Shown here in pieces: positions 22,225 to 44,136 of a stretch of 64,000 nucleotides of DNA. Source of the DNA: an uncultured Pseudomonadota bacterium (GTDB lineage Bacteria; Pseudomonadota; Alphaproteobacteria; JACZXZ01); contig CAVVLJ010000004.1 in assembly GCA_963749075.1 (NCBI GenBank), forward strand, positions 484,477 to 548,476, read 5' to 3'. The notes below the pieces were generated by a model. It ran no database searches and had not been told where the DNA came from. It was given only the letters and a program-made list of their open reading frames with translations. The stretch's first letter is position 1. Every line of letters starts with the position of its first letter. Position numbers and translations under genes: made by a program.

Positions 22225-24240
22225 TCAGAGAAGCGCAATGATCAGGATGGCCACGAGCAGCGCACCGATCAGCGAGAGATAAAAATTGAGATGGCCGGAC
22301 TGGATGATGCGCAATCTCGCGGCAACGGCGATGACCAGCCTCTCCAGCGGCGCGAACAGGTACGGCCCGAAAATCGGCGCCACATCGTGGCTGAACACCA
22401 GTCTTCGCACGAAGTACGGCTGGCCGTCCGATTCATGGGCAAGCTCGTGCTCCGTCTCGACGGTAGGCCGGTAGATGAAGCTGTAGAAAGTGCGGAGCGC
22501 GTTGGAGAAGGTGAGCGCCGTGGTCGCCGCCTGGCTCGCATCCTGGTCGCGACCGCCATACCACACCGAGGCACGGCGCACGGCGAAGCGCCTCGTCAGC
22601 AGCAGCAAGCCGAGCGGAACGAGAGCGAGGAGCGGCATCACGACCACGAGCAGGGTCGGCGAGATGAAGGCGAAGGTCTCGGGCACCCGGATCGGCGCCC
22701 CGGTGGCCGGCACGAGGAGCGGCCCGACGTGCATCTTGGCGACGGCCGTGGTGCCGAACTCCCGAGCGACGGCGGTGCCGAGGGAGTCGAGCCAGAGCGG
22801 CATCCCCACCGCCAGTGCCAAGACCAGCAGCCCGAGAAGGCCAACCGCAAGCGAAGCCGCGGCCGGCACCCGGCCGTTCTTGCTCTCGCTGCGGCCCAGC
22901 AGGCCGATGCCGAAGAGCTTGATGAAGATCGCGAAGGCGATGGCCGCCGTGAGCGCCAGCCCGGCGCCGGCCAGCGCCGTCGTCAGCCGGCTCGCGAGGC
23001 TGGTGAGGTGGAAGCCCTGGAAGAAGGTCTGGAAGAGATACCATTCGCTGACGAAGCCGGCCTGGGGCGGCATCGCAGCCAGGCTCATCGCCGCGAAAAG
23101 CGCGCCGAGACCGAATATCCAGGAGCTGCGGGCCAAAATCCCGCGCTGGACGAGCCTGTAGTCGCCGACCGCGCGGTAGACGCCGTCGGCCGCGAGAAAC
23201 AGCGCGCCCTTCGCGAGCGCGTGCCCCGCGAGATGCAGGAGGGCGACGGTCCAGGCAAGACTGGCGAGATCCATGAGGCCGTCCTGGCGGAACATCAGCG
23301 CTGCCCCGAGCAGGCAAACCGCTATCGAGCCGTTCTCGGCCGAGGACAGGCTCAGGAGCTCGCGCCAGGCCTCCTGCTGGAAGGCATAGAGGGCGGTGAG
23401 GATGGCGCTCACCACGGCAATGGCGACGACGAAGATGCCGGCGAGCGAGACCGGCAGCGCGTGGTCGGCCGGCAGCCATTCGATGAGGCCGCGGCTCAGC
23501 GCGAAAAAGGCGGCATTGAGGACGATGCCCGAGAGGAAGGCGCCGGTGGCACCGCTGCCAGCACCATAGGCGCCGGGGAACCATTCGTAGAACGGCAGCA
23601 GGCCGAGCTTGGCGCCGAAGCCGATGAGCAGCAACAGGCCGACAAAGAGCTGCTCGGCGCGCGGCATCGCCGATGCGGCGGCGGCAAAATCGTCGAAGGA
23701 CAGGCTGCGGGCGTGGCCGGCGAGGAGGATGAAGGCGAGAATGAGTGCCACCGCACCGGCCTCGAGCAGGGCCAGCATGAAGAGGACCGGCCGGCCCCTC
23801 TCGGGCGCCAGATCCTCGGAGAGGATCATCACGGCGCCGCCCAGGCTCATGATCTCCCAGGCCACGAGGAAGCTTGCGGCGTCCTGCAGGCCGAAGACGC
23901 CGAGCGCGCCGATCAGGCTCGCGGCCGCCCCGAAGATCCAGCCGCCCTGGCGCGGCGCCGGCGTACCGAGCCAGGACGCGAGCACCGCCCCGGCCAGGCC
24001 AAAGCCGAGGAGCCAGAGCGCCTGCGGCGAGAGACGGAAGACGGCGCCGGCGGGCCCGATCCCGAGCATCGTATGAATGGGCGGCAGCCCTTCGGGCAGC
24101 GCCGCTACGACGAGGATGAGAAGGGCGATGCCGCCGGCCCCGAGCAGCGCTTTGGCCGCGCCGTGCGCGCTGCCGATGAGCCCGAGCAGTGCCGCGATCA
24201 GCCACGCGGCCAGGACCACGGCGAGGAGCTCAGCCGACAA
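22225..24240 (-). CDS. hyfB: Ehr complex 1: HyfB-like (NuoL/MrpA-type) antiporter-like subunit
   Basis: FLVAWEIMS, GAKLGLLPFYEWFP, HALAKGALFL, GFVSEW, QSGHLNFYL. Confidence 0.88.
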   Translation of the reverse strand: MSAELLAVVLAAWLIAALLGLIGSAHGAAKALLGAGGIALLILVVAALPEGLPPIHTMLGIGPAGAVFRLSPQALWLLGFGLAGAVLASWLGTPAPRQGGWIFGAAASLIGALGVFGLQDAASFLVAWEIMSLGGAVMILSEDLAPERGRPVLFMLALLEAGAVALILAFILLAGHARSLSFDDFAAAASAMPRAEQLFVGLLLLIGFGAKLGLLPFYEWFPGAYGAGSGATGAFLSGIVLNAAFFALSRGLIEWLPADHALPVSLAGIFVVAIAVVSAILTALYAFQQEAWRELLSLSSAENGSIAVCLLGAALMFRQDGLMDLASLAWTVALLHLAGHALAKGALFLAADGVYRAVGDYRLVQRGILARSSWIFGLGALFAAMSLAAMPPQAGFVSEWYLFQTFFQGFHLTSLASRLTTALAGAGLALTAAIAFAIFIKLFGIGLLGRSESKNGRVPAAASLAVGLLGLLVLALAVGMPLWLDSLGTAVAREFGTTAVAKMHVGPLLVPATGAPIRVPETFAFISPTLLVVVMPLLALVPLGLLLLTRRFAVRRASVWYGGRDQDASQAATTALTFSNALRTFYSFIYRPTVETEHELAHESDGQPYFVRRLVFSHDVAPIFGPYLFAPLERLVIAVAARLRIIQSGHLNFYLSLIGALLVAILIIALL

Positions 24241-25036
24241 GGCGTCCTCCCCTTGCCCGCTGCGGCAGGCGGTCGAGGAACATGAGCAGCGCCTCGATGA
24301 TCGCGGCAGGATTGGGCGGGCAGCCCGGCAGATAGAGATCGACCGGCAAGACCCCTTCGAGCCCGTTACCGCAGGCGTAGCCTCCGCCGGCGATCCCCCC
24401 CGAGACGGCGCAGGTGCCGACGGCCATCACCCAGCGCGGCTCCGGCATCGCCTGGTAGGCCCGCTGCAAGGGCTCGCGCATGGCATAGCTGACCGGGCCC
24501 GTGACGAGCAGCAGGTCGGCGAAGCGCGGCGACGGCGTGAAGAAGACGCCGAAGCGGTGCAGGTTGTAGAACGGATTGTTGAGGGCCTGGAGCTCGGACT
24601 CGCAGCCGTTGCAGGAGCCGGCATCGACATGGCGGATGTGGAGGCTGCGCCGGAAGCCGTCGCGGGAGGCCGCCGCCGCTTGGCCGGAGACCTCGGCCTT
24701 GCCCTCGGAGAGCAGCAAGTCCGCCCGCTCGCGGACGCCGAACGCCCAGTCGAAGGAGGCCGTTGCCGCGTCGTTGGGGCAGGCCTCGACGCAAAGCTGA
24801 CAGGCAATGCAGCGTCCGTAATCGACCGCGAGCCGGTCCTGACCCGTTTCACCCGCCGCGACCGTGATCGCGGACGTCGGGCAAACGGCGGCGCATTCCT
24901 TGCACGCGGGCGCGCACTTCTGCGGCTCGAAGCGCGGCATGCCGAGCACGCCCTCCTGGCCGGCGTCGGGACCGCCCTTGGGCCAGCGCGTGGTCGCCTT
25001 GCCCTTCTCCAGTCCGAAGAATGTCCAGAGCGGCAT
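24230..25036 (-). CDS. Ehr complex 1: fused 2x[4Fe-4S] ferredoxin (HyfH/NuoI-like) + HyfI/NuoB-like small subunit
   Basis: CAPACKECAAVCP, CIACQLCVEACP, DAGSCNGCESE, GTCAVSGG, PGCPP. Confidence 0.9.
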   Translation of the reverse strand: MPLWTFFGLEKGKATTRWPKGGPDAGQEGVLGMPRFEPQKCAPACKECAAVCPTSAITVAAGETGQDRLAVDYGRCIACQLCVEACPNDAATASFDWAFGVRERADLLLSEGKAEVSGQAAAASRDGFRRSLHIRHVDAGSCNGCESELQALNNPFYNLHRFGVFFTPSPRFADLLLVTGPVSYAMREPLQRAYQAMPEPRWVMAVGTCAVSGGIAGGGYACGNGLEGVLPVDLYLPGCPPNPAAIIEALLMFLDRLPQRARGGRLVG

Positions 25037-25044
25037 GGCCTCCC

Positions 25045-26553
25045 TCAGCGATCGCAGCCCGCGACAGTGAGGCCGAAGCTCGCCTCGTTGATGGCATAGT
25101 CCATCATGTTGCTGTCGTGGACGGTGAAGGGAAAAACGCGCCAGTTGGAGTAGGACGGCGACTTGATCTTGACGCGCGACAGCGCGCCGCGATCGTCGAA
25201 ATGCACGGCGTAGAACAGGGAGCCCCGCGGCGATTCCGCCCAGCCCAGTCCCTCCGCATCGGGCGGCGGCAGGCAATCGGCATGCACCGGGCCCTCGTCG
25301 AGCAGCAGCAAGACCCGCTGCATCAGGGCTATGCTCGCCTCGATCTCGGCCATTCGGACCTGCGCCCGCGCGCGGGCGTCCCCGCTCGTCTTGACCGGCA
25401 CGGCGAGCGGCAGCTCGCCGTAAGCCGCATAGGGATGGTCCCGCCGCAGATCGCGGTCGAACCCCGACGCCCGCTGGATGGGTCCCGTCGCTCCCTGATC
25501 GAAGGCAATCCCGCGAGGCAGGACGCCGGTCGCGATCAGCCGGTCCAGATGACTGTTCGTGTTCTCCAGCATCGTCACATAAAGCGCTATCTGGTCGCGC
25601 AGGCTTTCGAGTGCCGTGCTCAGCCACGGCCCGGGATCGAGGTCGCGCCGGAGGCCGCCCGGGATCAGGAGGCTGCGCAGGAAGCGGCTTCCGGTCAGCC
25701 GGCCGTTGATTTGCTTGGCGCGCTCCTCGAGCAGCTTGCCCTCGGCTTCGCCGACCTTGAGCGTCGTCGTGTGCGAGAGATGGCCGAGATAGTGCAGGTG
25801 GTTGTAAAGCCGCTCGAGCTCGGCGAGCAGCGAGCGCAGCATGCGCGCGCGCGGCGGCACTGCGCACCCCGCCGCCCGCTCCACCGCCTGACAGAAGGCG
25901 AGCGCATGGGCGAAGCTGCCGACGCCGGAGACCCGCTCGGCCAGGATCGTGGCCGCGGCCAGCGAGCGCCCCTCGAAACGCTTCTCCATGCCGCGGTGCT
26001 TGAAGAAGAGCTGGGGATGGCAATGGATGATGTGCTCGCCGACATAGAAGAAGATGAGCTCCGCCGACTCGACCACGTCGGCGCGCACCGGTCCGAAGGG
26101 GAGCCTCTGCACGTCGGCGCCCGCGATCTCCGGGAGGCCGCCATCGGCGGGCGAGAAGGGCAGCGCCGCGTCGGCCGGATAGGCGGGATCGAGGGGCGGC
26201 AGGACCGGATTGGCTCCTTGATGGAGGACGAGCCGGTGAGGGTCGGGATGGTCGCGGAACGCCACGCCGAATAGATCGGCGATCTCGCGCTCGTACCAGC
26301 CGAGGAGCGGGCTGATGGCGGCGACGCTCGGCAGCGGCCCGCGCGGCACGCACCGCCACATGAAGAAGTGCTCCGTCCGGCCGCGGTTTCCGACATAGCG
26401 CAGCTCGAGGCGGCCGGGACCTGCGTACCACGCGTAGGCCATCTGCATGCGGCCGCCGCCCTGGATCAGCTCGCGCACGGCTCCCGGCAGATCCTGCGGC
26501 TCGATCGGTACGATCTCGAGGGCCGGGGTCGCGCGCTCGGCTGCCATGGTCAT
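25045..26553 (-). CDS. Ehr complex 1: HyfG/NuoCD-like large subunit lacking NiFe CxxC motifs
   Basis: YEREIADLFG, HRGMEK, AERVSGVGSFAH (no CxxC), ESPRG, C-terminus ASFGLTVAGCDR. Confidence 0.9.
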   Translation of the reverse strand: MTMAAERATPALEIVPIEPQDLPGAVRELIQGGGRMQMAYAWYAGPGRLELRYVGNRGRTEHFFMWRCVPRGPLPSVAAISPLLGWYEREIADLFGVAFRDHPDPHRLVLHQGANPVLPPLDPAYPADAALPFSPADGGLPEIAGADVQRLPFGPVRADVVESAELIFFYVGEHIIHCHPQLFFKHRGMEKRFEGRSLAAATILAERVSGVGSFAHALAFCQAVERAAGCAVPPRARMLRSLLAELERLYNHLHYLGHLSHTTTLKVGEAEGKLLEERAKQINGRLTGSRFLRSLLIPGGLRRDLDPGPWLSTALESLRDQIALYVTMLENTNSHLDRLIATGVLPRGIAFDQGATGPIQRASGFDRDLRRDHPYAAYGELPLAVPVKTSGDARARAQVRMAEIEASIALMQRVLLLLDEGPVHADCLPPPDAEGLGWAESPRGSLFYAVHFDDRGALSRVKIKSPSYSNWRVFPFTVHDSNMMDYAINEASFGLTVAGCDR

Positions 26554-28015
26554 GGCACCCCCGGGGACAGCGATGCGGCGATCGACGTGAGATAGCTCCA
26601 GACGTCGGCAGGCCACCACAGGCCGAGCACGAGGAGGGGCGCCAAAGCCAGCCACATCGGGACCGCGCACCACGCGGCGATTTTGGCAGCCGGCGGTTGG
26701 GCATCGGACGGCGGGCTGTAGTACATGGAGCGAAAGTGGTTCATGAAACCGACGAAGATCACGATGAGCAGTATCGCCATGACGTAGACCGCCCAGGAGA
26801 AGGACGGCTTCAGCCCGGCCCGCATAATCGTGAACTCGCTGAGAAAGAGGCCGAAGGGCGGCGCACCGGTAATGGCAACGGCGCCGGCGAGCCATAGCGC
26901 GCCCTCGACGGGAAAGCGCCGGCTCACGCCGTTGATCCGAAGGATCTCCTTCGTGCCGTAGGCCCGCATCATGTTCCCAGCGCCGAAGAACATGAGGGAT
27001 TTGTTGAGAGAGTGGTTGAGCATGTGATAGAGCGCGCCGGCCACGCCGAGGGCGCCGCCGAAGCCGAAGCCGAGCGCCACGACACCCATATGCTCGATGC
27101 TCGAGTATGCCATCAGCCGCTTGATGCCCTGCTGGCGCACGATGAAGAGCGCGCCGATGAGGAGCGAGAGGGCGCCGAATGCGACGAGCACGAGCTGCGG
27201 AAGCTCGCCGAGATCGGCAGCGCGCAAGACGCGCAGGAACCGCACGATCCCGATCATCGCGGTGTTCAACAGCGCCCCTGACAGCATCGCCGATACCGGC
27301 GCCGGGCTTTCGCTGTGGGCGTCCGGCAGCCAGCTATGCATCGGCGCCAGCCCGACCTTCGTGCCGTAGCCGACGAGCACGAGGAGGAAGGCGAGGATCA
27401 TCAGGACCGGGTTCATCTTCGGCGCCGCCTGGCCGAGGGCCGCCCAGGTCATCTCATAGCTCGGCCCAAGGACGAAGCTGCCGCACCAGTAGAAGAGCAC
27501 GGTGCCGAGCAGCGCCAGGCTGATCCCGGCCGAGACCACCATGATGTATTTCCAGGCGGCTTCCATGCTCTCGGCGGCGCGCTCGAAGGCGACGAGGAAC
27601 GTGCTGACCAGCGTGGTGAGCTCGATCGCGATCCAATAGATGCCGACATTGTTCATGAGCGGCCCGAGCAAGCGTGGTCAGGCCGAAGCCGGCGAAGAGC
27701 GCATAGAACTTGAAGAGCCGGGCATCCTCGTTCAAGCAGCCGCATGTAGCCGACGGCATAGATCGAGGCGAGGAAATAGACGATCGCGGTGCAGAGGATG
27801 ACCCAGGCTGCGGCCCGGTCGATGATGACGTAGCCGCCCCAGAACAGCATCTCCCGTCCGTCGATCAGAAATGGCAGTGGCAAAGTGCAGGCAAAAGAGA
27901 TCGCACCGGCGATTAGGTTGAGCGCCTCGGAGATACGGGGGCGGCGCAGAACGAGGCAGCCGACGGCCGCCGCCAGAGGCGCAAGGGTGAGCGCGAGAAT
28001 GAGCGACCCGATCAT
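26550..28015 (-). pseudogene. hyfF: Ehr complex 1: HyfF-like subunit with two +1 frameshifts (real or sequencing error)
   Basis: Continuous HyfF homology over three frames; removing the extra bases at ~27734 and ~27670 gives a 487-aa ORF (paralogue is 483 aa). Confidence 0.85.
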
Positions 28016-28695
28016 CAACCGACAAGCCGCTTGAGATCGAGGCTGCTGGTCGTACCGGCATGCGTCATCAAGTATCCGACGAGGACGCCGAAGCAGGCCA
28101 CGACGATAAGAAGGTCGAATAGAATGACCATCTCTATCAATAGCGGCATGCCCGGCACCAGTATCTGCGAGCCCAGGAAGATGCCGTTCTCGAGCACGAG
28201 CAAGCCGAGAATCTGGCTGATCGCCTCGTGGCGGACGGCGAGCAGGAGGAAGCCTATGAGCATCATCGACAGCATGACGGTGAGCGCCAAGACGGCGACG
28301 GTGAGCCCGAGATGGAACTCGGTGGCGATCCGGACCGATACGGAGAGCGCGAACATCACGAATATGGCGCCGACGACGAGGCTGGAGCTCGGCTGGAGGA
28401 TGACGTGGATTTCGCGATCGACGTCGAGGCGGCGGATGATCCGCCAGATGAGGTAGGGCAGCAGAAGGCCGCGAAAGAGCAGCGTAAGGATGGCGATGAG
28501 ATAGAGCTCCGGATAGTTGCCGTAATAGCCGACCGCCGCGGAGAGCGCCGCGATGGCCCAGGATTCCGCCGCGAAGGCGTAGAGGTAGTTCTTGAGCCAG
28601 CGCGATCCCAGCATGACGAAAGAGAGAAGCAGGCTGACGATCGCCAGAAGGCTGAAGAGCGAAGAAGCCAACGGGCTGAGTTGCTGGATGAGCAT
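28015..28695 (-). CDS. hyfE: Ehr complex 1: HyfE-like membrane subunit
   Basis: QILGLLVLENGIF, MPLLIEMVILFD, SLDLKRLVG. Confidence 0.88.
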   Translation of the reverse strand: MLIQQLSPLASSLFSLLAIVSLLLSFVMLGSRWLKNYLYAFAAESWAIAALSAAVGYYGNYPELYLIAILTLLFRGLLLPYLIWRIIRRLDVDREIHVILQPSSSLVVGAIFVMFALSVSVRIATEFHLGLTVAVLALTVMLSMMLIGFLLLAVRHEAISQILGLLVLENGIFLGSQILVPGMPLLIEMVILFDLLIVVACFGVLVGYLMTHAGTTSSLDLKRLVG

Positions 28696-28700: not shown

Positions 28701-29648
28701 TTAGCTCAACTGGGTGCCGATGATCGAGAGGACCGCGAAGACGAAGGAGGCGGCAAGCGGCTCCTGATATCGATAGAAACGGAGGCGCGATTGGGCGGTC
28801 TCCACGAACACCACGACGCATGCAACCAGAATGAATTTGACGATCAATCCGGCTGCGGCACCCAGTGCGCCGAGCGCCGTGCCCTTGATTGAGAGGCCCC
28901 AGGGCAGCAGCAGCACGTTGCAAAAGATCGTGTAGAGGATGAACTGCTTCATCGCCGACGCCCATTTGAGGAGCGCCAGCAGCGGACCCGAATATTCGAG
29001 GATGCGGCCCTCCTCGATCATGTAGACCTCGATATGGGTGCTCGAATGGATGGGCATCCGGTCGGTTTCGACGAGGAGGAGGATGAAGAAGGCGGCGACG
29101 AGGAAGAGATGCGCCGGGCTGAAATAGACCGCCCAGCTCGACACCAGGAGATGGTTGACGACGAAGGGGAGCATCGCCTTGGCGAGGAGCGTGATGCCGA
29201 CGAACACGAGGATCAGCGTCGGTTCGGCGAGGATCGAGACCATGACGGCGCGGCTCGAGCCGATGCCGCCATAGGCGCTCGCGCTGTCGAGTCCCGCGAG
29301 GATGATCATGAAGGAGCCGAGCGTGAGGATCAGCCCGCCGCCCAGGATGTCGCCCATGTCGGAGAGCGGCAGCGGAAAGTTGGTCAGCACCGGGATGAGG
29401 ATCGGCACCGTGAGCATGCAGCTGAAGGCAACGAGCGGCGTTACCCAGAACAGCCAGGACGCGGTCTCGGGCACCACGATCTGCTTATGGAAGAGCTTCC
29501 ACAGGTCGCGATAGGGCTGGAAGATGCCGGGGCCCTGGGCGCGCTGCACCCGCTCCTCGAACTGGACGATGATACCCTGGATAAGCGGAGCCAGAAGCAG
29601 CACCGTCAGCACTTGCGCGATCTGGAGGAGGATATCCCGCGCGGTCAT
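28701..29648 (-). CDS. hyfC: Ehr complex 1: HyfC/NuoH-like membrane subunit
   Basis: GPGIFQPYRDLWKLFHK, YGGIGSSR, AEP, ETDRMP, LEYSG. Confidence 0.9.
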   Translation of the reverse strand: MTARDILLQIAQVLTVLLLAPLIQGIIVQFEERVQRAQGPGIFQPYRDLWKLFHKQIVVPETASWLFWVTPLVAFSCMLTVPILIPVLTNFPLPLSDMGDILGGGLILTLGSFMIILAGLDSASAYGGIGSSRAVMVSILAEPTLILVFVGITLLAKAMLPFVVNHLLVSSWAVYFSPAHLFLVAAFFILLLVETDRMPIHSSTHIEVYMIEEGRILEYSGPLLALLKWASAMKQFILYTIFCNVLLLPWGLSIKGTALGALGAAAGLIVKFILVACVVVFVETAQSRLRFYRYQEPLAASFVFAVLSIIGTQLS

Positions 29649-29771
29649 GGGCACGTTCCTCCCGCGAGTGCCCGCCGCTTGGCCGGCTCTCCAGGCAAAC
29701 GCGCATGCGTTCTCTCGGGGGGGCGCCGGGGGCCTCTCATGCAAACTTCTCCTGCGTCCATAAGACGCTTA

Positions 29772-36239: not shown

Positions 36240-38390
36240 CTACAAAAGGCCCGCGCCGAATATGAGCACGAGCAACAATGTGAGAAGAACGTACGCCGCA
36301 TAGGCGTTGACGTGGCCAACATGCATCCTCCTGACGACACCGGCAACCCTTCGCAAGGCATGCACCGGCGGCCCGAGCACCAGACGATCGACGATGTGAA
36401 CCTCCGTGTGCTCGCGCCTGATGGCCGTGCGGAAATGCCGGGCCACGGCCTCGGTGCTGTCCTCGACCGCGGCCGGACGGAGCAGGACCTGGAAGACGAC
36501 GCGGACAGGATTGGAAAAGCCGGTCGCCGTATAAGTGAGGCCCGGCCAGAGCCGCCGCAGTCCGCCGTCCCAGGCTGCGGCCCGGACGAGCGCGCGTCCT
36601 CGCGTCAGCAAGCGGAAGACCACGAAGGTCAACGCGAGCACGGTCGCGAGGACGACGATGGCGTAGGAAGTCGACATTGCGAAGACCACCGGGTTGCGCT
36701 CCCCGCCGCGATGCAGGACGACGAGACCTCGTCCGGGCAACAGCTCGCTGCCGACCTGGCTACCCAGGTCGTGGAACTCCTTCAGGAATGCCGGCGGAAT
36801 ATTCTCGCGCCGTTGCGCGGCCTCACTGAAGAACGGCGGCACGAGCGCCGCCGTGGCACTCGCGTGGGCGAGGGGCATGGCGGCCCCGTCAAGGACCGGA
36901 ATGACGTAGGTGGGCAGAATTCCGAGAGCAATGCATGATGCGGCGAGCAATCCCAGCGGCACCCGCATGCCGGGACGGGCTTCGACGGCTTGAGCTGCAC
37001 CCTCCGAACGCGGCATGCCGAGAAAGCCCATGGCGAAAACCTTGGCGAAGCATGTGACAGCCAGGCCGGCGGTCAGCGCCAAGAGAGCGCCGCACACCGC
37101 GAAGACGATCTTGATCGCGGTCGAGGACAGAAGGGCGGAACGCAGTATGGTCTGCAGCGTCAGCCACTCGCTGACAAAGCCGTTGAGCGGCGGCAAAGCC
37201 GAGATCGACAGCACGCCCACCAGGAACAGGCCGCTCGTCCAAGGCATACGGCGAGCGATGCCGCCGAGCCGATCGAGGTCCCGGGTTCCGGCTCCGGCCT
37301 CCACGGCGCCGGTGCCGATGAAGAGGAGCGCCTTGTACACCGAGTGGTTCGCGAGGTGATAGAGCGCCGCGATGAGAGCAATCCCCGCGACAACGCCATG
37401 CCCGGTGGCGCGAAAGACCATGGCGGCGCCGACGCCCGCCGCGACGATACCCATGTTCTCGATGGTGCTATGGGCGAGAAGGCGCTTCATCTCGGCCTGG
37501 ATCGTCGCATAGAGAATGCCGACCAGGGCCGAAATGCTGCCGACCGCGAGAACGATCAGGCCGGGGCCGGGCTCCGTGACGGGAACGAGATCGAGATTGA
37601 AGCGAACGATCCCATATATCCCGAGATTGACGATGACCGCGGACAGCAGCGCCGAAACATTGGTCGGCGCCACGGGATGCGCCAGCGGCAACCAGCTATT
37701 GACGGGTACCAGCCCCGCTTTCACGGCGAAGCCAAAGAAAGAGAGGAGGAGAATGGCCCACCTGACGCCCTCTCCGGGCAGCGGCGAGCTCGAGCGCAGA
37801 GCTGGGAAATCGAGCGCTCCGGCGTTGCCGGCGGCAAGAACGAAGGCGATCATGACCGCGATTGTCCCTGCCTCGCTCATCGCCAGCATGACAAAGCCGG
37901 CCTGCGAGCTTTCTTCATGTTCGTATTCGTAAACCACCAGGAGATAGCTCGCGATCGACATCGCCTCCCACGCCACCAAAAAGGAAATCGCGTCGTCGGC
38001 GATCAACACCAGCACGATCGAAGCAAGCAGAGCGTGGTAGAGGATGCTGAAATACCGCAAGCTGCGATGTGGGAGGTATTTCGCGAGATAAGAGCCCGAA
38101 AAGAGCGATACCGGCAGGAAGACCAGCCCGGAGACGAAGAGAAAGAGCGCCGAAAGGCGGTCCGCCGCGAGCCGCAGCGTGCCCAGGGAAAGCACCTGCC
38201 AGAGCCCGATTTGGAAAGAACCGCCGCCGACCAGGAGCCCGCCGCTTGCCGCGAGAAGGACGAGTGCAGCCAGCGAGCCGACCGCCGCCAGGAGCGCGGG
38301 GGTGCGGCGCGCGGGGACCAGGAATGCCGCGACGGCCCCGGTGCCGCAGAGAATAAAGAATGTTGCGATGAGCGGGCCCGCGATGCTCAT
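36240..38390 (-). CDS. hyfB: Ehr complex 2: HyfB-like antiporter-like subunit
   Basis: FLVAWEAMS, VKAGLVPVNSWLPLAHP, LAHSTIENMG, NHSVYKALLF, NGFVSEW. Confidence 0.9.
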   Translation of the reverse strand: MSIAGPLIATFFILCGTGAVAAFLVPARRTPALLAAVGSLAALVLLAASGGLLVGGGSFQIGLWQVLSLGTLRLAADRLSALFLFVSGLVFLPVSLFSGSYLAKYLPHRSLRYFSILYHALLASIVLVLIADDAISFLVAWEAMSIASYLLVVYEYEHEESSQAGFVMLAMSEAGTIAVMIAFVLAAGNAGALDFPALRSSSPLPGEGVRWAILLLSFFGFAVKAGLVPVNSWLPLAHPVAPTNVSALLSAVIVNLGIYGIVRFNLDLVPVTEPGPGLIVLAVGSISALVGILYATIQAEMKRLLAHSTIENMGIVAAGVGAAMVFRATGHGVVAGIALIAALYHLANHSVYKALLFIGTGAVEAGAGTRDLDRLGGIARRMPWTSGLFLVGVLSISALPPLNGFVSEWLTLQTILRSALLSSTAIKIVFAVCGALLALTAGLAVTCFAKVFAMGFLGMPRSEGAAQAVEARPGMRVPLGLLAASCIALGILPTYVIPVLDGAAMPLAHASATAALVPPFFSEAAQRRENIPPAFLKEFHDLGSQVGSELLPGRGLVVLHRGGERNPVVFAMSTSYAIVVLATVLALTFVVFRLLTRGRALVRAAAWDGGLRRLWPGLTYTATGFSNPVRVVFQVLLRPAAVEDSTEAVARHFRTAIRREHTEVHIVDRLVLGPPVHALRRVAGVVRRMHVGHVNAYAAYVLLTLLLVLIFGAGLL

Positions 38391-39160
38391 GTGGCATGCG
38401 CATCCAAGTTGCCGGAGGCTGAGACCAGCCCGGACGGCGGCTTCCTCTCGACCGCCACCAGCAGGCCGTGCAGGATCGCCAGCGGTGGCGGCGGGCATCC
38501 GGGTACGACCACGTCGACCGGGACAAGCTCGGCGACGCCGCCGGCCGCGGCAAAGCTCGGGCCGAAGACGCCGCCGGAGATCGCGCAGGCTCCTATCGCC
38601 ACGACGCGCTTGGGCGGCGGCATCGCCTCGTACGTCTTGCGCAAGGGCAGCCGCATCGCGTCGGAGAGCGGCCCCGCGGCCAGCAGGATGTCGGCATTGC
38701 GCGGCGTCGGGGTGATGAAGAAGCCGAGGCGGTGCATGTTGTAGTAGGGATTGTTGAGCTGCCGGGCCTCGCTCATGCAGGCGCTGCAGGCGCCGGCATC
38801 GACGAAGCGAATGTGCAGCGAACGGCCGAATGCCCGATTCAGCTTGGTTTGCGCAGCCGCCATCTCGTCGCGGTAGGCGGCCCATTCATAGCTTCCCTCC
38901 CATGGGAGGCCAGGCCGAGCCGCGTCGGCATGGCAGCGGAAGCAGTGGACGCAGCGGCCCTGATCGATCGCAGCTCCGTCGCCGCGGCGCAGGATGGCGC
39001 CCGTCGGACAACGCCCGACAAGCGCTTCCGCGTCCTGCTCGGGCAGCGCGCCGGCAGCGAGCGGCCGGCCCGGCGACACGCCCGCCGCCTCGTCGGGCTG
39101 GTCGGGATAGACGCTGGTCTTTATTCCCGTGCTCAAACCCTTCAGTACCCAATTGGCCAT
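38387..39160 (-). CDS. Ehr complex 2: fused ferredoxin-like + HyfI/NuoB-like small subunit
   Basis: CPTGA, CVHCFRC, DAGACSAC, GACAISGG, PGCPP. Confidence 0.9.
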   Translation of the reverse strand: MANWVLKGLSTGIKTSVYPDQPDEAAGVSPGRPLAAGALPEQDAEALVGRCPTGAILRRGDGAAIDQGRCVHCFRCHADAARPGLPWEGSYEWAAYRDEMAAAQTKLNRAFGRSLHIRFVDAGACSACMSEARQLNNPYYNMHRLGFFITPTPRNADILLAAGPLSDAMRLPLRKTYEAMPPPKRVVAIGACAISGGVFGPSFAAAGGVAELVPVDVVVPGCPPPPLAILHGLLVAVERKPPSGLVSASGNLDAHAT

Positions 39161-39168: not shown

Positions 39169-40788
39169 CTAGCGGTCGCATTCGGCGTTCGACAGGCCGA
39201 AGCTGGCGAGGATGATGGGAAAGTCCTGGAACGCGAAATTTTCGGCGGCGAGATGAAACCCGTGCCAGTTCGGGAATGAGGGCGGGGTCAGGCGGTAGCG
39301 CGCCACCGTGCCATCGCCGTTCAGTCTCACCCAATGGAAGGCGGCACCCGATGGCGCCTCCACCGCGCCGAGCGCCACCCCGGCAGGCCAGCCGGTACGG
39401 CCCGCGTGGATGCGGCCCGCCGGCAGCAGCGAGACATGGCGGCGGATGATCGCGGCTGACTGCTCCGCTTCGGCGAAGAGGATGCGCAGTCGCGCGTAGC
39501 CGTCGCCCTCCCGTTCCACCGGGACCGAGAAGTCGACGGCTTCGTATGAGGCGTATGGCCGGATTTTGCGGAGATCGCGAGCAACGCCCGAGGCGCGGGC
39601 GATCGGGCCGACGAGGCCGTACGACACGGCGGCTTCTCTGGACACGATGCCGACTTCCTCCAGCCGGTCGAGAAAGCTGCTCGAATACAGCAGCATCCGG
39701 TGCAGTTCCCCCAGTTTCCTCGCGATTCCGCCAACCGCCTCCCCGAGGCTGGCGCACTGCGTTTCGCTGAGATCGCAAGCGACGCCGCCCGGTATCACGA
39801 CGCCGAAGAGATATCGGTGGCGCGCGGCCGCGCAACTCAGGCGAAGCAGGTCCTCCTCGATGAGCGCGGCTTGGCTGGCCGCCACGGCCAACGCAGTCGA
39901 GTTGCAGATGCCGGTGATTGCCGCTGCGTGATGCCGCAGGCGTTCGAGTTCGGCGATAACCACGCGGAGCGCCTTTGCGCGCGGCGGCACCTCGATTCCG
40001 CCGATCGTCTCGACGGCCTGGCAGAACCCGAGGCCGTGGGCGAATGCCGCGGTGCCGGAAAAGCGCTCGGCGAGGAGGAGGACGCGATCGACCGGCTGGC
40101 CCTCGGCGATCTTTTCCACTCCGCGGTACTTGTAGAAGAACCGCGGAATCGTGCGAATGACATCCTCGCCTACGGTCTCAAGCAGAAAATGGGCGGACTC
40201 GGCAAAGTCGGAGAACACCGGGCCGACCGGCATGGCGAAGCTGCCTTGCGCCATGACAACCGTCGGCGGCCGCCATGCCGGCTCGGCTTCGCGGGGTTCG
40301 TGCGGCCGTTTCGCATCGAAGCTCCGGCGCATCGGATTGACGCCTTCCGGCCAGTCCTCGTGCAGCACGAATTCGCCGAGCCGGGGATGCCCCTCGAACG
40401 TCAGCCCGAACAGATCCTCGGCCTCGCGCTCGTGCCAATCGACCGCGGGCCCATGGCCGAGACCGCTGATCGACGGCACCGCCACCGCGTGGGCCTCGAG
40501 CCTGAGTCCGACCTGGACCCACGGCGAGCCGGCGGCCCCATAATAGATGTAAGTGAGCGACCACGCGGGGCCGGGCAATTCCTCGACGACCAGCGTCGCG
40601 AAGGCGCAGCCCGCCTCCTCGACCAGCCATTCGCAGAGCTCGCGCAGCTCTTCCGGCCGGCAGTCGATGCGGCAGGACCCGGCCGCATCGTCGCGCCTCG
40701 CCACGACCAGCCCTTTCCAGCGGGCATTGGCGCGCTCGACGATATTTGCCGATCGAAGCCGATCCTCTGCGATCTCGCCGGCCGTCAT
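39169..40788 (-). CDS. Ehr complex 2: HyfG/NuoCD-like large subunit lacking NiFe CxxC motifs
   Basis: WHEREAEDLFG, YRGVEK, AERFSGTAAFAH (no CxxC), C-terminus ASFGLSNAECDR. Confidence 0.9.
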   Translation of the reverse strand: MTAGEIAEDRLRSANIVERANARWKGLVVARRDDAAGSCRIDCRPEELRELCEWLVEEAGCAFATLVVEELPGPAWSLTYIYYGAAGSPWVQVGLRLEAHAVAVPSISGLGHGPAVDWHEREAEDLFGLTFEGHPRLGEFVLHEDWPEGVNPMRRSFDAKRPHEPREAEPAWRPPTVVMAQGSFAMPVGPVFSDFAESAHFLLETVGEDVIRTIPRFFYKYRGVEKIAEGQPVDRVLLLAERFSGTAAFAHGLGFCQAVETIGGIEVPPRAKALRVVIAELERLRHHAAAITGICNSTALAVAASQAALIEEDLLRLSCAAARHRYLFGVVIPGGVACDLSETQCASLGEAVGGIARKLGELHRMLLYSSSFLDRLEEVGIVSREAAVSYGLVGPIARASGVARDLRKIRPYASYEAVDFSVPVEREGDGYARLRILFAEAEQSAAIIRRHVSLLPAGRIHAGRTGWPAGVALGAVEAPSGAAFHWVRLNGDGTVARYRLTPPSFPNWHGFHLAAENFAFQDFPIILASFGLSNAECDR

Positions 40789-40799: not shown

Positions 40800-42251
40800 C
40801 TAGCCTCCCATGGCGGCCGCTGCGGCGCGGAGCAGGTCCTGCAGCGCGGCGGGAACGTAGATTCCGACGGCGAGCAATGGAACCGCCGCGAGGACCAGCG
40901 CGAGCTTGCAGGATAGCGGCGGAGCCGAGATTGCCGGGCTCCCTTGCGGCGCGCCGAAAGCCATCCGGTTGACGTGAAACATGACCGCGCAGAAGGCGAT
41001 CACGACGAAGAAAGCCAAGAGCGCGATGGCGACATACTGGCCGGTGGCGATCCCCGCCTTGAAGATCAGGAACTCGCTGATGAAAATTGCAAAGGGCGGC
41101 GCGCCGGCGATCGCGAAGGCGCCGGCCGCGAGTGCCAACGCCGATAGCGGGGCAAATCGGACGAGTCCGCGAACGGCGGCGATCTCTTGCGTACCGCAGG
41201 TCGTCGCGACGAGACCTGCGGCAAAAAAGCAGAAGGATTTGGCGACGGCATGACCGGCCATCTGATAGGCCGCGGCCAGATGCGCCTCGGCCCCGCCGAG
41301 CCCTGCCGCGAAGAGGATGATGCCCATGTGCTCGACCGTCGAGAATGCGAACATGCGCTTGAAGTCCCTGACGTAGACGAGGAGCAGGGTGGCGACCGCG
41401 ACCGAGAGCAGGCCGAAGCCGATGAACCAGGGGCGCGCGTCGAGCGCGGGCACGCCACCCACCACGGGAAAGAGCCGCAGGATGACGTAAAGCACCGTCA
41501 TCGTCTCGACGCCGGAGAGAAGAGCGCAGATCGAAGCCGGCGCCTGGCTATGTGCGTCCGGCAGCCAGGTATGCATCGGCACGAAGCCGACCTTGGTGCC
41601 GAACCCGACAAGAATGAGAAGGAAGGCCGGCCACAGGAGTGCCGGCGGCATGCGCGGTGCGGCGCCGACGAGGCCGACCCACGTGAATGGCTCGTAGCCT
41701 GCAACCCGCGACCCCCAATAGAGGATCAGGAAGCCGAAAAGGGCAAGCACCGCGCCGAGCGTCGTCAACACGACATATTTCCACGCCGCCTCCAGCGCCT
41801 CTGCCGTATCCTCGAAGCCCACGAGGAAGGCGGAAAGCAACGTCGTCAGCTCGACCGCGACCCACATCAGCGCCACATTGGCCAGCACCGGCACGGCCAG
41901 CATGGACATGATGAAGAGATTATAGAGCGCATAGTAATGCTGCTCCTTGCGGGGGCCGGCGTGCGCTGCTCGGAGCCTGATATATCCCCAGGAGAACAGC
42001 GCCGCGGTTGTCCCGACCAGTGCGACCAGGACAAGGACGAGCGCCCCCAGCCCGTCGCAGGTCAGCCATTCTCCGAGCGCATCGACGCGGCCGTTATGGG
42101 CGGCGTCGAGCGCGATGCCGACGGCAAGAACGAGAACGGTCGCGGTCGCGACCAACGTGGTCGGCGCGGCGAAGCGCCGGCCCAGCGGAGACAGCGAGAC
42201 GGCGCTGGCGAGCGCCGGAATGGCAAGTACGGCCGCGAGCTCCATGGCCAC
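40800..42251 (-). CDS. hyfF: Ehr complex 2: HyfF-like subunit
   Basis: WVAVELTTL, ALEAAWKY, GTKVGFVPMHTWLPDAHSQAP, FSTVEHMG. Confidence 0.92.
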   Translation of the reverse strand: MAMELAAVLAIPALASAVSLSPLGRRFAAPTTLVATATVLVLAVGIALDAAHNGRVDALGEWLTCDGLGALVLVLVALVGTTAALFSWGYIRLRAAHAGPRKEQHYYALYNLFIMSMLAVPVLANVALMWVAVELTTLLSAFLVGFEDTAEALEAAWKYVVLTTLGAVLALFGFLILYWGSRVAGYEPFTWVGLVGAAPRMPPALLWPAFLLILVGFGTKVGFVPMHTWLPDAHSQAPASICALLSGVETMTVLYVILRLFPVVGGVPALDARPWFIGFGLLSVAVATLLLVYVRDFKRMFAFSTVEHMGIILFAAGLGGAEAHLAAAYQMAGHAVAKSFCFFAAGLVATTCGTQEIAAVRGLVRFAPLSALALAAGAFAIAGAPPFAIFISEFLIFKAGIATGQYVAIALLAFFVVIAFCAVMFHVNRMAFGAPQGSPAISAPPLSCKLALVLAAVPLLAVGIYVPAALQDLLRAAAAAMGG

Positions 42252-42252: not shown

Positions 42253-42930
42253 TCAATGCTCCCGCAAGGCGGCCAGCGATCCGACGGCCGTGGTCCCGAG
42301 CCGCCTGTGGATCTGGCGCGTGAGCAGGCCGACCACCAGGGCCACCACCGGCACGTCCACCGCTGCGGCGAGCTCCGCGATCACCGGCAGGCTTGGGACG
42401 ATGGCGATACCCGCAAAGAACACGCCGTTCTCGAGTGCAAGCAAGCCGAGGAGCTGCGGCACCGCTTCGCGCCGGGCCACGACGGTGAACATGCCCAAGA
42501 ACATCGCGGCGATCCCGAGCGGCAGGTTGATCCGTGCAAACGGCACGTCCACGGCACCGAGCATCGGATTCGCGACCGCATAGGCAAGGACGATGAGGAC
42601 CGCCGCCATCAGCAGCGAGCTCGGTATGTTGAGTACCCGCTCGATCTCGCGCGTGCGATAGACTTCGGCGCTGACCGTGCGCCGCAGCACCCAGGGAATC
42701 ATCAGCGTCTTGGTGGCGATCGTGATCGCCGCGACGGCAAAAAGATGCGGCGAGCCGAGCGCGATCCCGAGCAGGACCGCCGAGAGCGTCAGGAGCAAGG
42801 ATTGCGCGATGAAGAGCTGAAGGGACGCGAGAACCTGGCGGGTGGCGACGACCCCGAGCGCCGTGAGGAGGAAGAGCGCGCCGGTCAGCGCGTCGAGTGC
42901 GAAGATGACCGGAAAGGGCGAGCCGTTCAT
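42253..42930 (-). CDS. hyfE: Ehr complex 2: HyfE-like subunit
   Basis: QLLGLLALENGVF, LPVIAEL, SLAALRE. Confidence 0.88.
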   Translation of the reverse strand: MNGSPFPVIFALDALTGALFLLTALGVVATRQVLASLQLFIAQSLLLTLSAVLLGIALGSPHLFAVAAITIATKTLMIPWVLRRTVSAEVYRTREIERVLNIPSSLLMAAVLIVLAYAVANPMLGAVDVPFARINLPLGIAAMFLGMFTVVARREAVPQLLGLLALENGVFFAGIAIVPSLPVIAELAAAVDVPVVALVVGLLTRQIHRRLGTTAVGSLAALREH

Positions 42931-42940: not shown

Positions 42941-43891
42941 CTAGATCTCGGACAGCCGCGTGATCATCGCGACGACGGAGATGACGAATGCCGCACCGAG
43001 AAACTCCGTGATGCGAAATAGGCGCAGCTTGGCAAGAGAAGATTCGATGTAGACGAGGACGAGCACGAACACGAAGATCTTGACGAGGACGAGCGGGATG
43101 GCGACCAGCACCTCGACGGCGCCCATGCCGTGCGCCAAGCCCCACGGCGTCACGAGCACGTTGAGAAAGATGCAGATCAGGACGAAGAACTTCATGGCGC
43201 CCGCCCATTTCATGAGCGCGGCGCCGCGTCCTGAGTATTCGAGCGATTTCGACCGGTCGATCATCGCGAGCTCGAACGTCCCGCTCGGACTGTCGACCGG
43301 AATGCGTCCATCCTCCGCGAGGATGAGCATGAGGAAGGCGATCATGAGCAGTACGTGCGAAGGCTCGAAGAAATTCGCGATCGGCGTCACCCAGCGAAGC
43401 TGAACGATGTAAGGGATGGTCGATCCGGCCACGAAGGAAACCGTGAGAAAGACCACGATGAAGACCGGCTCGGCGAGGAATCCGACCATGCGGGTGCGGC
43501 TCGCCCCCATCGGCCCGTAGGGGTTTGCCGTGTCCACGGCGGCGAGCGTCGCGAAGAAGCCGCCGAGGGCGAGGATGAAGCCGCCGCCGAGCATGTCCCC
43601 CATGAAGGCGAAGAAGAGCGGATACTGCGTGAGCACGGGGATCAGGAGCGTCACGAAGACCGGTGCCGCGAACGCGACATAGGGAGCCGCGCGGAAGATC
43701 CAGGAGCTCTGCTCGGACACGATTTCGTCCTTGTGCAGGAGCTTCCACAGGTCACGATAGGGTTGAAGGATGCTCGGACCGCGCTTCGACTGGAGATGTT
43801 CCTTCAGTCGGCTTGCGACGCCTTCGACGAGGGGAGCGAAGGCGATCACGACGAAGACCTGGAGAAGATTGTAGATGATCCGCGCGGCCAT
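42941..43891 (-). CDS. hyfC: Ehr complex 2: HyfC/NuoH-like subunit
   Basis: GPSILQPYRDLWKLLHK, YGPMGASR, EDGRIPVD, LEYSG, AKLRLFR. Confidence 0.92.
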   Translation of the reverse strand: MAARIIYNLLQVFVVIAFAPLVEGVASRLKEHLQSKRGPSILQPYRDLWKLLHKDEIVSEQSSWIFRAAPYVAFAAPVFVTLLIPVLTQYPLFFAFMGDMLGGGFILALGGFFATLAAVDTANPYGPMGASRTRMVGFLAEPVFIVVFLTVSFVAGSTIPYIVQLRWVTPIANFFEPSHVLLMIAFLMLILAEDGRIPVDSPSGTFELAMIDRSKSLEYSGRGAALMKWAGAMKFFVLICIFLNVLVTPWGLAHGMGAVEVLVAIPLVLVKIFVFVLVLVYIESSLAKLRLFRITEFLGAAFVISVVAMITRLSEI

Positions 43892-44089
43892 GGCGTTAGC
43901 CTCGCGAGTCTGCCGCGCCGGCGCACGGCCCGCCCGGGCATCGTGCTTGAGCCGCGCGCCCGACCATTCGGATACGGCGCTCGTCTTGTCCGCGGAGAAT
44001 CGGCTCAGCGATGGCAGCCATCGCGCCGCCCACCCTTCTAGCTGACCTTCCTACGCCATCGCCCCGCTTCGGCATCGAGCGGGGCCATC

Positions 44090-44136
44090 GTAGGAGTCAT
44101 CAGCCCGATGGGCGGTTAGGGCGGACTCCATCGCCG
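44090..44136 (-). ncRNA. Fluoride riboswitch 4 (upstream of Ehr operon 2)
   Basis: GGCGATGGAGTCCGCCCTAACCGCCCATCGGGCTGATGACTCCTAC. Confidence 0.93.

Follow-up and report, generated by a model that had tools for sequence, protein, structure and literature searches.

A 22-kb block of four predicted fluoride-induced units with Ehr operons, a MutS4A/MutS4B pair and an unnamed protein family in a genome without a recognisable fluoride exporter

That the crcB motif, the aptamer of the fluoride riboswitch, is associated with mutS and "formate hydrogen lyase" genes has been known since the work of Weinberg et al. (2010; PMC2864571). The available text of a 2024 review still lists the "formate hydrogen lyase" association, and it ranks the Na+/H+ antiporters second after the exporters (PMC11139923). 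The energy-converting hydrogenase-related (Ehr) complexes are defined in PMC6349859, and a pair of MutS-like genes, MutS4A and MutS4B, was described by Lin, Nei and Ma (2007; PMC2190696), whose accessible sections report it from five distantly related bacteria, Thermoanaerobacter among them, and two archaea. Here we analyze a stretch of 64,000 nt, called the window below, from contig CAVVLJ010000004.1 of assembly GCA_963749075.1 (5,488,800 bases in 23 contigs, completeness 96.3%, contamination 5.15%). A block at 22225..44136 of the window holds four fluoride aptamers, each heading a unit of its own: Ehr operon 1, the gene for a 136-aa protein (unk136), a MutS4A/MutS4B pair and Ehr operon 2.

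The explanation which we prefer, and to which we give a probability of roughly 0.6, is that the block represents the version, in one lineage, of a "super-regulon" of the fluoride riboswitch which is already known. The four units are predicted to be induced by fluoride independently of each other, no recognisable exporter is among them, and the Ehr complexes would serve ion and pH homeostasis. The likeness to the fluoride regulon, as far as the available text of the two sources describes it (PMC2864571; PMC11139923), lies in the same aptamer family, in the ON-switch layout with an overlapping terminator and in the downstream gene classes, which are mutS-like, "formate hydrogen lyase", Na+/H+ antiporters and phosphatases. 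Unlike that regulon the window's genome has no exporter gene behind any switch or elsewhere, all four switches of the genome lie in one 22-kb block, and one unit encodes a member of an unnamed protein family.

An earlier reading of this DNA, made from the letters alone (the sequence-only reading), had proposed a new fluoride-stress system. This cannot be upheld, as the switch, its mutS-like and "formate hydrogen lyase" links and the MutS4 pair are already published in the parts of the papers available (PMC2864571; PMC2190696). New, as far as the literature was searched, are the quantified near-obligate fluoride control of two Ehr clades without the NiFe site, the Asn-Glu Walker B motif of the MutS4 pair, unk136 as a member of the regulon, a genus in which neither Fluc nor CLC-F is recognisable, and the alternation of Ehr with an exchanger in that genus. 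The search found no link of Ehr to a fluoride riboswitch, older papers speaking of "formate hydrogen lyase" (the gene-context supplements of Weinberg et al. lay outside the search), and queries joining the fluoride riboswitch with MutS, dynamin or regulon gave nothing relevant.

The window was compared with all Rfam families (cmscan, gathering thresholds; 34 bits for RF01734). Four sites matched RF01734 above this cut-off, with 40.7-60.1 bits and with positions 1-64 of the 64 in the model covered in every case, and they enclose the four crcB-type aptamers which the sequence-only reading had placed at 29772 (-), 29928 (+), 32612 (+) and 44090 (-). Aptamer 1 (29766-29828, minus strand; 50.4 bits, E 5.4e-11) is 115 nt from the start codon of Ehr operon 1. 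Aptamer 2 (29919-29979, plus strand; 40.7 bits, E 8e-8) is divergent from it and heads the 136-aa open reading frame (ORF), which starts 162 nt 3' of the aptamer. Aptamer 3 (32603-32664, plus strand; 43.2 bits, E 1.2e-8) heads the MutS4 pair, the MutS4A ATG at 32836 being 172 nt 3' of it, and aptamer 4 (44084-44144, minus strand; 60.1 bits, E 3.5e-14) heads Ehr operon 2, which starts 193 nt 3' of it. The assignment of one unit to each aptamer is thus the one originally made, and the picture of a block of fluoride-switched units stands; what had been overlooked is the split hyfF-like gene in operon 1 and an IS630 element with a histidine phosphatase gene between the 136-aa gene and the MutS switch. 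A scan of the whole assembly with RF01734 gave exactly these four matches, and all fluoride switches of the organism are therefore found within the 22-kb block. A fifth "aptamer" at 63372-63430 (-), suggested by a loose regular expression, was rejected, since the Rfam scan did not report it and our own model did not match it at E<=0.1.

All four are predicted to be ON switches from the layout of their hairpins. In each of them a predicted hairpin pairs with the 3' CUCCU strand of the aptamer (z -2.2 to -4.1 against shuffled sequences), and binding of fluoride would keep this strand in the pseudoknot and so block the terminator or sequestering hairpin. In the Ehr1 switch CUCCU pairs with AGGAG (-19.7 kcal/mol, z -3.7). 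The hairpin of the unk136 switch (about 29965-30002; -23.9 kcal/mol, z -3.1) overlaps the aptamer 3' strand and is followed by UUUUUU, and the sequestering hairpin of the MutS switch (-38.3 kcal/mol, z -4.1) likewise ends in a U run, whereas that of the Ehr2 switch (-36.7 kcal/mol, z -2.2) has no U tract; U tracts thus follow the hairpin in two of the four switches (unk136 and MutS). The MutS unit has in addition a second hairpin with a T run at 32692-32713, a textbook intrinsic terminator. An ORF of 31 codons (29741-29646, minus strand) separates aptamer 1 from the start codon of Ehr1. The CUCCU strand of the aptamer has its partner in the Shine-Dalgarno-like site of this ORF, AGGAGA, and the ORF ends in a stop codon which overlaps the ATG of the hyfC-like gene; it may encode a leader peptide or have arisen by chance.

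The two Ehr operons (29651 to 22225 and 43891 to 36240, both on the minus strand) have an identical order of six genes: NuoH/HyfC-like, HyfE-like, HyfF-like, a NuoC-NuoD-like large subunit, a fusion of ferredoxin and NuoB, and HyfB/NuoL-like. In operon 1 the NuoH/HyfC-like first gene (28701..29651; PF00146, E 4.9e-33) is 90% identical to that of G009, a relative in the same family which carries an Ehr1-type locus (L115). It is followed by the HyfE-like gene (28015..28680, start approximate; NF008556, hydrogenase 4 membrane subunit, E 1.8e-14; 86% identity to G009 over residues 1-221) and by a frameshifted HyfF-like gene (26550..28018, in the ORFs 27653-28018 and 26550-27671; PF00361, E 1.2e-51, the match beginning at about profile position 123). 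Then come the large subunit (25045..26550, start approximate; PF00346, PF00374 and PF00329), the fusion of a HyfH-like 2x[4Fe-4S] part with a NuoB-like part (24230..25027, start approximate; Fer4 families and PF01058, E 5.7e-30) and the HyfB/NuoL-like last gene (22225..24240; PF00361, E 7.6e-28; NF005086, hydrogenase 4 subunit B, E 6.2e-81). Operon 2 consists of the NuoH/HyfC-like (42941..43891; PF00146, E 3.2e-31), HyfE-like (42253..42930; NF008556, E 3.4e-19) and intact HyfF-like genes (40800..42251; PF00361, E 1.9e-46; NF005044, E 1.5e-100), the large subunit (39169..40788; PF00346, PF00374 and PF00329), the ferredoxin-like plus NuoB-like fusion (38387..39160; PF01058, E 6.1e-23) and the HyfB/NuoL-like last gene (36240..38390; PF00361, E 7.3e-52; NF005086, E 4e-170).

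The best match to the Ehr2 large subunit in the PDB is HycE of E. coli (7z0s_E, E 1.8e-54). In the alignment HycE "drvCgiCgfah" stands against Ehr2 "erfSgtAafah", that is, both N-terminal NiFe cysteines are replaced (S..A); the Ehr2 translation reads ERFSGTAAFAH and the Ehr1 large subunit ERVSGVGSFAH (S..G) at this motif. The N-terminal pair is missing in all eight Ehr large subunits found near MutS4 loci. The canonical C-terminal NiFe motif carries two cysteines, and a single one is left in both large subunits of the window (...AGCDR in Ehr1, ...AECDR in Ehr2). Because both large subunits are without the NiFe cysteines, the operons are, as judged from the sequence, those of Ehr complexes, kin of the group-4 hydrogenases and complex I, and not of formate hydrogenlyase, and with the NiFe site lost they would not produce H2 in the manner of the latter. 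The cysteine motifs of the NuoB-like part are retained in both operons (GACSACMSE, GACAISGG and PGCPPPP in the Ehr2 fusion subunit), and one CxxCxxC...CP set remains in the ferredoxin part of Ehr2. Each operon has two PF00361 (Mrp/Nuo antiporter-like) subunits. By eye, the Glu of transmembrane segment 5 in "...WE..." and the Lys of segment 7 in "GxxxKxG...P...WLP" are retained in them, motifs which we take to be of functional weight in antiporter-like subunits. All Hyf/Hyc models of NCBIfam score below their curated cut-offs (NF005086 567.5 against 667; NF005044 337.5 against 610).

Compared with Hyc (PDB 7Z0S), Hyf and Ehr, the operons have the same HyfC/E/F/G/H-I/B-like set, a large subunit homologous to HycE, two Mrp-type subunits and the NuoB-type ligands. 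They differ from Hyc/Hyf in the loss of the NiFe ligands, in the fusion of the HyfH-like and NuoB-like parts and in having no formate dehydrogenase in the operon, and from all three as described in the near-obligate fluoride-riboswitch control of both clades. The name "formate hydrogen lyase", which the available text of the 2024 review still uses, can hence be corrected, since these complexes are without NiFe ligands.

This control was quantified in two surveys. Among the best 80 of 383 relatives of Ehr1 (79-94% identity), nearly all from Alphaproteobacteria and many from acid-soil lineages including Acidiphilium, an aptamer is situated 68-135 nt 5' of the first gene in 80 of 80 loci, and in 21 of the 80 there is a divergent second aptamer as in the window. 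The Ehr2 survey used the first subunit (NuoH/HyfC-like) and the best 80 of at least 505 relatives (72-94% identity), which belong to Alpha-, Beta-, Gamma- and Deltaproteobacteria, Verrucomicrobiota, Acidobacteriota, Nitrospirota and Omnitrophota. Here a same-strand aptamer lies within 900 nt 5' in 73 of the 78 assessable loci, 60 of them detected by our own covariance model (built from 31 aptamers, hits counted at E<=0.001) and 13 of the other 18 by the Rfam model at its gathering score. The five without such an aptamer are L152, L157, L164, L177 and L198; a same-strand aptamer is found 1.2-1.6 kb upstream in L152 and L198, and 3.3 kb upstream in L164, there by our own model only. From these near-constant aptamers upstream it follows that both Ehr clades are dedicated members of the fluoride regulon. 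In L056 (Lucifera butyrica) three tandem aptamers (5875-6141, minus strand) precede one Ehr-like NuoH-type first gene.

The MutS4A-type gene (32836..34425, plus strand; PF00488, E 3.4e-19) has the MutS core and domain V, and its Walker A motif reads GPNQGGKTT. The MutS4B-type gene (34422..35933, plus strand; PF00488, E 8.6e-22) begins with a GTG at 34422 overlapping the MutS4A TGA at 34423-34425 (GTGA). The two proteins have sizes of 503 and 529 aa and are 30% identical over 224 aa. Neither of them matches domain I or II (PF01624 or PF05188), even at E<=1, or the Smr domain, both ending soon after domain V; because domain I is missing the pair would not be a mismatch sensor, and because Smr is missing it would not be a nuclease. 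The AlphaFold2 (AF2) model of MutS4B (pLDDT 73.4) matches MutS and the MutS2 core over its full length with E about 1e-16, and 136 PDB chains are matched at E<=0.001; a clamp-like insert at residues 172-226 has a pLDDT below 50. Family membership and translational coupling make a heterodimeric MutS-core ATPase clamp the most likely identity of the pair. At the Walker B position, where Taq MutS has "lldevgrgts", Asn-Glu is found instead of Asp-Glu in 79 of 79 MutS4A and 80 of 81 MutS4B hits. It is a speculation that this change is linked to Mg-fluoride chemistry.

The organisation is that of the MutS4A/MutS4B genes in the accessible sections of PMC2190696: two adjacent MutSac genes with the stop of A over the start of B, and a patchy distribution resembling horizontal gene transfer which includes Thermoanaerobacter. 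The likeness is one of gene organisation, and a pair with 65% identity is present in a Thermoanaerobacter record (L018), the genus named in that paper, which in those sections does not mention fluoride control or an Asn-Glu Walker B. The core of MutS2/RqcU (PDB 7vuk, 7qv3) is also similar, with a MutS core and ATPase of comparable length without domains I and II (Foldseek E about 1e-15, TM-score 0.52 normalised to the target). Unlike MutS2/RqcU, the window pair has no Smr/KOW C-terminal part, has NE in Walker B and is a heteromeric gene pair rather than a single gene.

For the MutS4 survey the best 80 of at least 487 MutS4B relatives were taken, with contigs of one genome per species and 60-74% identity; they come from Chloroflexota, Desulfobacterota, Firmicutes, Alphaproteobacteria, Spirochaetota, Verrucomicrobiota and others. 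The MutS4A gene is directly 5' of MutS4B in all of the 80 loci where that DNA is present, and the MutS4A relatives are 51-71% identical across phyla. The 80 loci hold 104 aptamer hits, the window's own not counted, and 44 of them have at least one; an aptamer within 700 nt upstream of MutS4A is seen in 22 of 72 assessable loci, with 50 having none and 8 not assessable. The synteny survey which the sequence-only reading had called for finds both pairings, of the switch with Ehr and with MutS4, widespread; the gene pairings themselves were already published.

The first ORF behind the aptamer was found for 106 of 108 hits, and these ORFs were clustered; 75 were scanned against Pfam, with MutS4A-like ORFs, the window's own and duplicates omitted. 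The commonest first gene is MutS4A (23), followed by dynamin-like GTPases (12), Na+/H+ exchangers (9 of the 104 hits outside the window), enolase (7), Ehr first genes (6 loci), DUF190 (4) and dihydroxy-acid dehydratase, pyrophosphatase and major facilitator superfamily transporters (3 each), with others making up the remainder. The dynamin GTPases (PF00350) are found behind aptamers in L009, L016, L032, L036, L038, L041, L042, L048, L066, L067, L074 and L077; in L038 and L042 the dynamin gene is directly 5' of MutS4A, and there is none in the block of the window. The densest fluoride island seen is L021, a locus in a metagenome-assembled genome of Rhizomicrobium sp., with ten aptamer hits in 22 kb. 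Behind these aptamers stand genes for a LysR regulator, dihydroxy-acid dehydratase, an ABC ATPase and DUF211, the MutS4 genes, and genes for several proteins without a name.

Ehr and MutS4, with at least 505 and at least 487 relatives, are widespread orphan systems, and the fluoride control gives both of them a physiological context which can be tested.

The third kind of unit consists of unk136 (30141..30551, plus strand; 136 aa), which directly follows aptamer 2. Scans with Pfam and NCBIfam gave no match; the gene is real as judged by conservation. It has 37 close homologues, all "hypothetical" and, where named, alphaproteobacterial, with a conserved MRGL... start and many conserved Trp, His and Glu positions. 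A profile search of 1.84 billion representatives gave 186 clusters at E<=0.001, 129 of them at E<=1e-10, nearly all of 100-150 aa. Among 25 members sampled 22 have no Pfam match, and three are gene calls with a fragment of a pyrophosphatase, an Na+/H+ exchanger or a peptidase. In P0148 and P0153 the unk136 domain is joined to the pyrophosphatase or Na+/H+ exchanger fragment; these are probably read-through calls on short contigs, and they show a fluoride-regulon neighbourhood beyond the eight unk136 loci examined in genome contigs. All of these eight have aptamers, seven with an aptamer upstream on the same strand, and unk136 is the last gene of its operon. Its order is aptamer, Na+/H+ exchanger, universal stress protein (Usp), unk136 in three loci and aptamer, calcineurin-like phosphoesterase, unk136 in three others, and in a congener locus it directly follows the aptamer as in the window. 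The AF2 model (pLDDT 83.6) has a helix, a five-stranded sheet and a helix, and the protein is predicted to be soluble. Foldseek gave no PDB match at E<=0.001 (best 1.1e-2, TM-score 0.32), a wide VIA-align search gave at best Z 6.1 (YjoB N-terminal domain; root-mean-square deviation 3.6 over 84 residues), under the noise guide of 7-8, and the ESM Atlas gave no usable match; no fold is assigned on this basis, and a new fold need not follow from it. With its homologues the protein forms a small alpha/beta family without a name, whose genes close fluoride operons.

The sequence-only reading had noted no Fluc/CrcB or EriC gene in the window, and this was found to be so in the window and beyond it. 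Our own hidden Markov model of CrcB, built from 20 CrcB stretches, has no hit in the window, and PF02537 has no match in the assembly at its completeness of 96.3%, with a positive control in 11 of 14 reference genomes. The genus was represented by the window's genome (G000) and five congeners (G001-G005, completeness 79-100%). No CrcB was detected in any of the six, as compared with 4 of 5 genomes from other genera of the family and 22 of 41 genomes overall. The assembly has two CLC genes, both on contigs other than that of the window. According to the available text of PMC11139923 the signatures of CLC-F are GNNLI/GMGLI, GREGT/V and GEVTP. Two kinds of CLC gene occur in the six genomes, one with GHGVP / GREGP / GIFSPS and one with GREGA, and by this motif test neither kind has the CLC-F signatures and none of the genes has GEVTP. 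The absence of both known exporter families from the genus is well supported by these searches, if short of proof. In the GREGA-type CLC gene of G000 (contig C16, 254720-255740; L002) the Pfam model positions 1-182 and 186-344 are in different frames; the gene is one open frame in the congeners, and a frameshift or an assembly error is present in G000.

All five congeners carry at least one fluoride aptamer, and their switches fall into two patterns. G000 and G003 have Ehr2, the MutS4 pair and unk136, each under its own switch, these three units being the only ones headed by switches in G003; a protein query found no orthologue of the switched exchanger in either genome. G001, G002, G004 and G005 have a single switch each, which heads an exchanger gene, with Usp and unk136 behind it in G001, G002 and G005; the G004 contig breaks off within the exchanger, the first gene. 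Consequently five of the six genomes show unk136 behind a switch. The four genomes with the exchanger have no orthologue of Ehr2 (best large-subunit hits 32-37%, the level of complex I or of the other Ehr type) and no MutS4 pair (only the canonical MutS, 31% identity). Ehr2 with MutS4 in two genomes thus alternates with a switched exchanger and Usp in four, which is a lead and not a statistic. It fits with Ehr and the exchanger filling one niche, and it suggests which function to test first. A genus with switches and without Fluc/CLC-F also offers a natural background in which the contribution of each unit would be unmasked by an exporter.

According to the available text of PMC11139923 it is HF that brings fluoride into the cell, where F- becomes trapped in proportion to the pH gradient and the cytoplasm is acidified. 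The cell would answer by expressing ion translocators, and Ehr would manage cytoplasmic pH and the membrane gradients while influx of HF acidifies the cell, the same job as is usually assigned to the riboswitch-controlled Na+/H+ exchangers. Because the antiporter-like subunits and the Fe-S module are retained, the simplest reading of Ehr is that of a redox-driven or redox-gated translocator. That the Ehr complexes are fluoride-induced ion translocators of such a cation/proton type we hold tentatively, at somewhat less than even odds, and the suggestion of "energised ion pumping or pH rescue" made for them in the sequence-only reading is still the best guess. Expulsion of protons by Ehr would counter the acidification, and with an exchange of cations for protons the pH gradient would become smaller, so that less F- would be trapped. 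The cation/proton antiporter (CPA) family of riboswitch-controlled Na+/H+ exchangers (PF00999) has the same regulatory position and the same proposed role in pH and ion balance, and four congeners have their single fluoride switch in front of exchanger-Usp-unk136 (the cut contig of G004 does not show unk136). Ehr is unlike these single-subunit secondary transporters in being a six-subunit complex containing Fe-S.

Several points weigh against this interpretation. Every function assigned here is inferred. Extrusion of protons would raise the pH gradient and with it the trapping of F-, and a redox drive would require an electron donor and an acceptor for Ehr. Operon 1 carries a frameshift, only the 22 of 72 MutS4 loci are directly switched, the others being deeper in switched operons or without a switch, and G000 has one distant PF00999 exchanger elsewhere in the genome, which has no switch. 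The genus pattern compares two with four close kin which are not independent and may reflect a single event. With 96.3% completeness and 5.15% contamination there is room for a missed crcB in one genome, which 0 of 6 in the genus makes unlikely. Finally, a crcB gene is situated no more than 10 kb from the MutS4 pair in 22 of 80 loci, and no more than 6 kb from the first gene of Ehr2 in 11 of 80; Ehr and MutS4 would thus usually work next to a channel, on which their role may depend. Of the 30 island-bearing genomes 14 have CrcB, as do 22 of 41 relatives, with no visible difference between the two sets (only CrcB was scored, and the completeness of the 30 is not established). The view that the module is built to work without a channel is contradicted by these numbers: as crcB is often inside such islands, they are not exporter substitutes by design.

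Among the alternatives the one that survives best is that the island is partly decaying, operon 1 being a cluster of pseudogenes and the phosphatase disconnected, so that only Ehr2, MutS4 and unk136 would matter. We consider this unlikely, though less so than the explanations that follow. The first approximately 97 codons of the hyfF-like gene in operon 1 and its remainder are in different frames, while the gene is intact, in one frame, in G009 (L115); the two pieces are 70% and 82% identical to it, with the shift between about 27727 and 27662. The split is due either to a frameshift or to an assembly error, and barring the latter operon 1 is probably inactive in this genome. A histidine phosphatase gene (branch 1; 30619..31242, minus strand; NCBIfam ribazole/PspA-like, E 3.7e-35) is convergent with unk136, and 20 nt upstream of its start codon an IS630-family element ends (31262..32430, minus strand; transposase 31276-32355, with PF13358 DDE_3 and helix-turn-helix domains; 32-nt terminal inverted repeats at 31262-31293 and 32399-32430), by which the phosphatase is cut off from the DNA upstream. 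A second copy of the element, 99% identical, on contig C16 shows recent activity, and the switches of G003 serve only Ehr2, unk136 and MutS4. However, a single-base assembly error would look identical and the contigs cannot tell the two apart, and the remaining genes of operon 1 are open and 76-90% identical to G009. Homologues of the phosphatase are found near the MutS4 pair in 15 of 80 loci, in one of them (L079) directly behind an aptamer.

The block had also been called mobile. The active-looking IS630, a group II intron RNA, protein identities of 60-94% across phyla and a different gene order in the congener speak for this, but no boundaries of the island can be defined. Orthologues of the flanking genes were sought in the five congeners and no empty site was found: the flanking WD40/cytochrome c gene has counterparts with 37-40% identity, apart from one fragment with 84%, and the flanking DUF1801 gene has no orthologue in any of the five. 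The GC content falls only slightly, to 0.61-0.68 from 0.69-0.72 on the left side. Mobility of the block is suggestive only. The group II intron RNA lies at the left edge of the block on the plus strand, with RF02003 domains 1-4 at 20341-20477 (100 bits) and the RF00029 domain 5/6 region at 20891-21039 (43.6 bits); the pieces are only about 700 nt apart and the intron may be short and without an ORF, or degraded.

A wider hypothesis, for which we see about one chance in a handful, is that a genus without both exporters achieves tolerance by machines which reshape the gradients, a CPA exchanger or Ehr being interchangeable for this. The unnamed family of about 110 aa would then be a possible core factor, which could bind fluoride or metal-fluoride or be an adaptor for the transporters, and MutS4 would rescue stalled nucleoprotein machines, its Asn-Glu ATPase working where Mg-fluoride poisons ordinary P-loop NTPases.

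It is rather improbable, a little more so than the gradient-reshaping hypothesis, that the MutS4 pair is a DNA repair or surveillance factor, induced as fluoride stress damages DNA or blocks replication enzymes, an idea which goes back to 2010. MutS domain V and the full MutS core fold are there, and the available text of Weinberg et al. (PMC2864571) suggests DNA-damaging stress, that of Lin et al. (PMC2190696) a role in "DNA metabolism". Against this the mismatch-binding domain I, the connector domain II and the Smr nuclease domain are missing, and the model of the clamp-like insert is of low confidence. In the loci surveyed the pair keeps company with dynamin-like GTPases, ion transporters and glycolytic enzymes, and the scan of 75 first genes brought up none for repair. 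Of 160 hits 159 have Asn in the place of the Walker B Asp, and the counterpart of this change in E. coli MutS is the mutant D693N (PDB 3k0s, by its title). This mutation reportedly disturbs the handling of Mg2+.

Replacement of the exporter by the island, in which Ehr alone or with unk136 or another partner would drive fluoride out directly or indirectly, has in our judgement a slim chance; the island would then be a novel type of efflux machine for fluoride in lineages which have lost Fluc. The six genus genomes without a CrcB or CLC-F-type gene all have fluoride switches, an unk136 homologue stands behind a switch in the five where the contig is not cut inside the first gene (G004), and 16 of the 30 island-bearing genomes are without CrcB. 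On the other hand the antiporter-like subunits are of cation/proton families (PF00361) with nothing recognisable as anion-selective, four congeners have a CPA exchanger in the place of Ehr, crcB is frequent in the same islands elsewhere, and unk136 is predicted to be soluble.

That the operons are a true formate hydrogenlyase or hydrogenase-4, which would ease the acidification caused by fluoride in that CO2 and H2 are formed from formate and protons of the cytoplasm, is rejected as very improbable: HycE is the nearest solved relative of the large subunit, the NCBIfam names are all Hyf/Hyc-like, a formate-dehydrogenase-like cluster is present on the right of operon 2 at 2-13 kb from it, and complexes of formate dehydrogenase with Ehr are proposed for other lineages in the available text of PMC6349859, but the equivalog cut-offs of NCBIfam are missed, the N-terminal NiFe ligands are lost here and in 8 of 8 related large subunits, the C-terminal ...CDR motif has a single Cys, and the cluster has no aptamer and does not adjoin Ehr2 in the congener locus L011, whose contig is that of the G003 units.

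The formate-dehydrogenase-like cluster (45955-57203) adjoins Ehr operon 2. It comprises a polyferredoxin of 690 aa (45955-48027, minus strand), DUF6505, DUF6352, DUF3305 and DUF3306 proteins, a TorD-like chaperone, a molybdoenzyme resembling the formate dehydrogenase alpha subunit (52594-55506; TIGR01591, 461.9 bits against a cut-off of 666) and a formate dehydrogenase gamma cytochrome b (56184-57203). In the left part of the window (6164-10177, minus strand) there is an unusually long ORF of 1337 aa for a class II ribonucleotide reductase with an internal TACO1/YebC-like stretch and a TSCPD domain.

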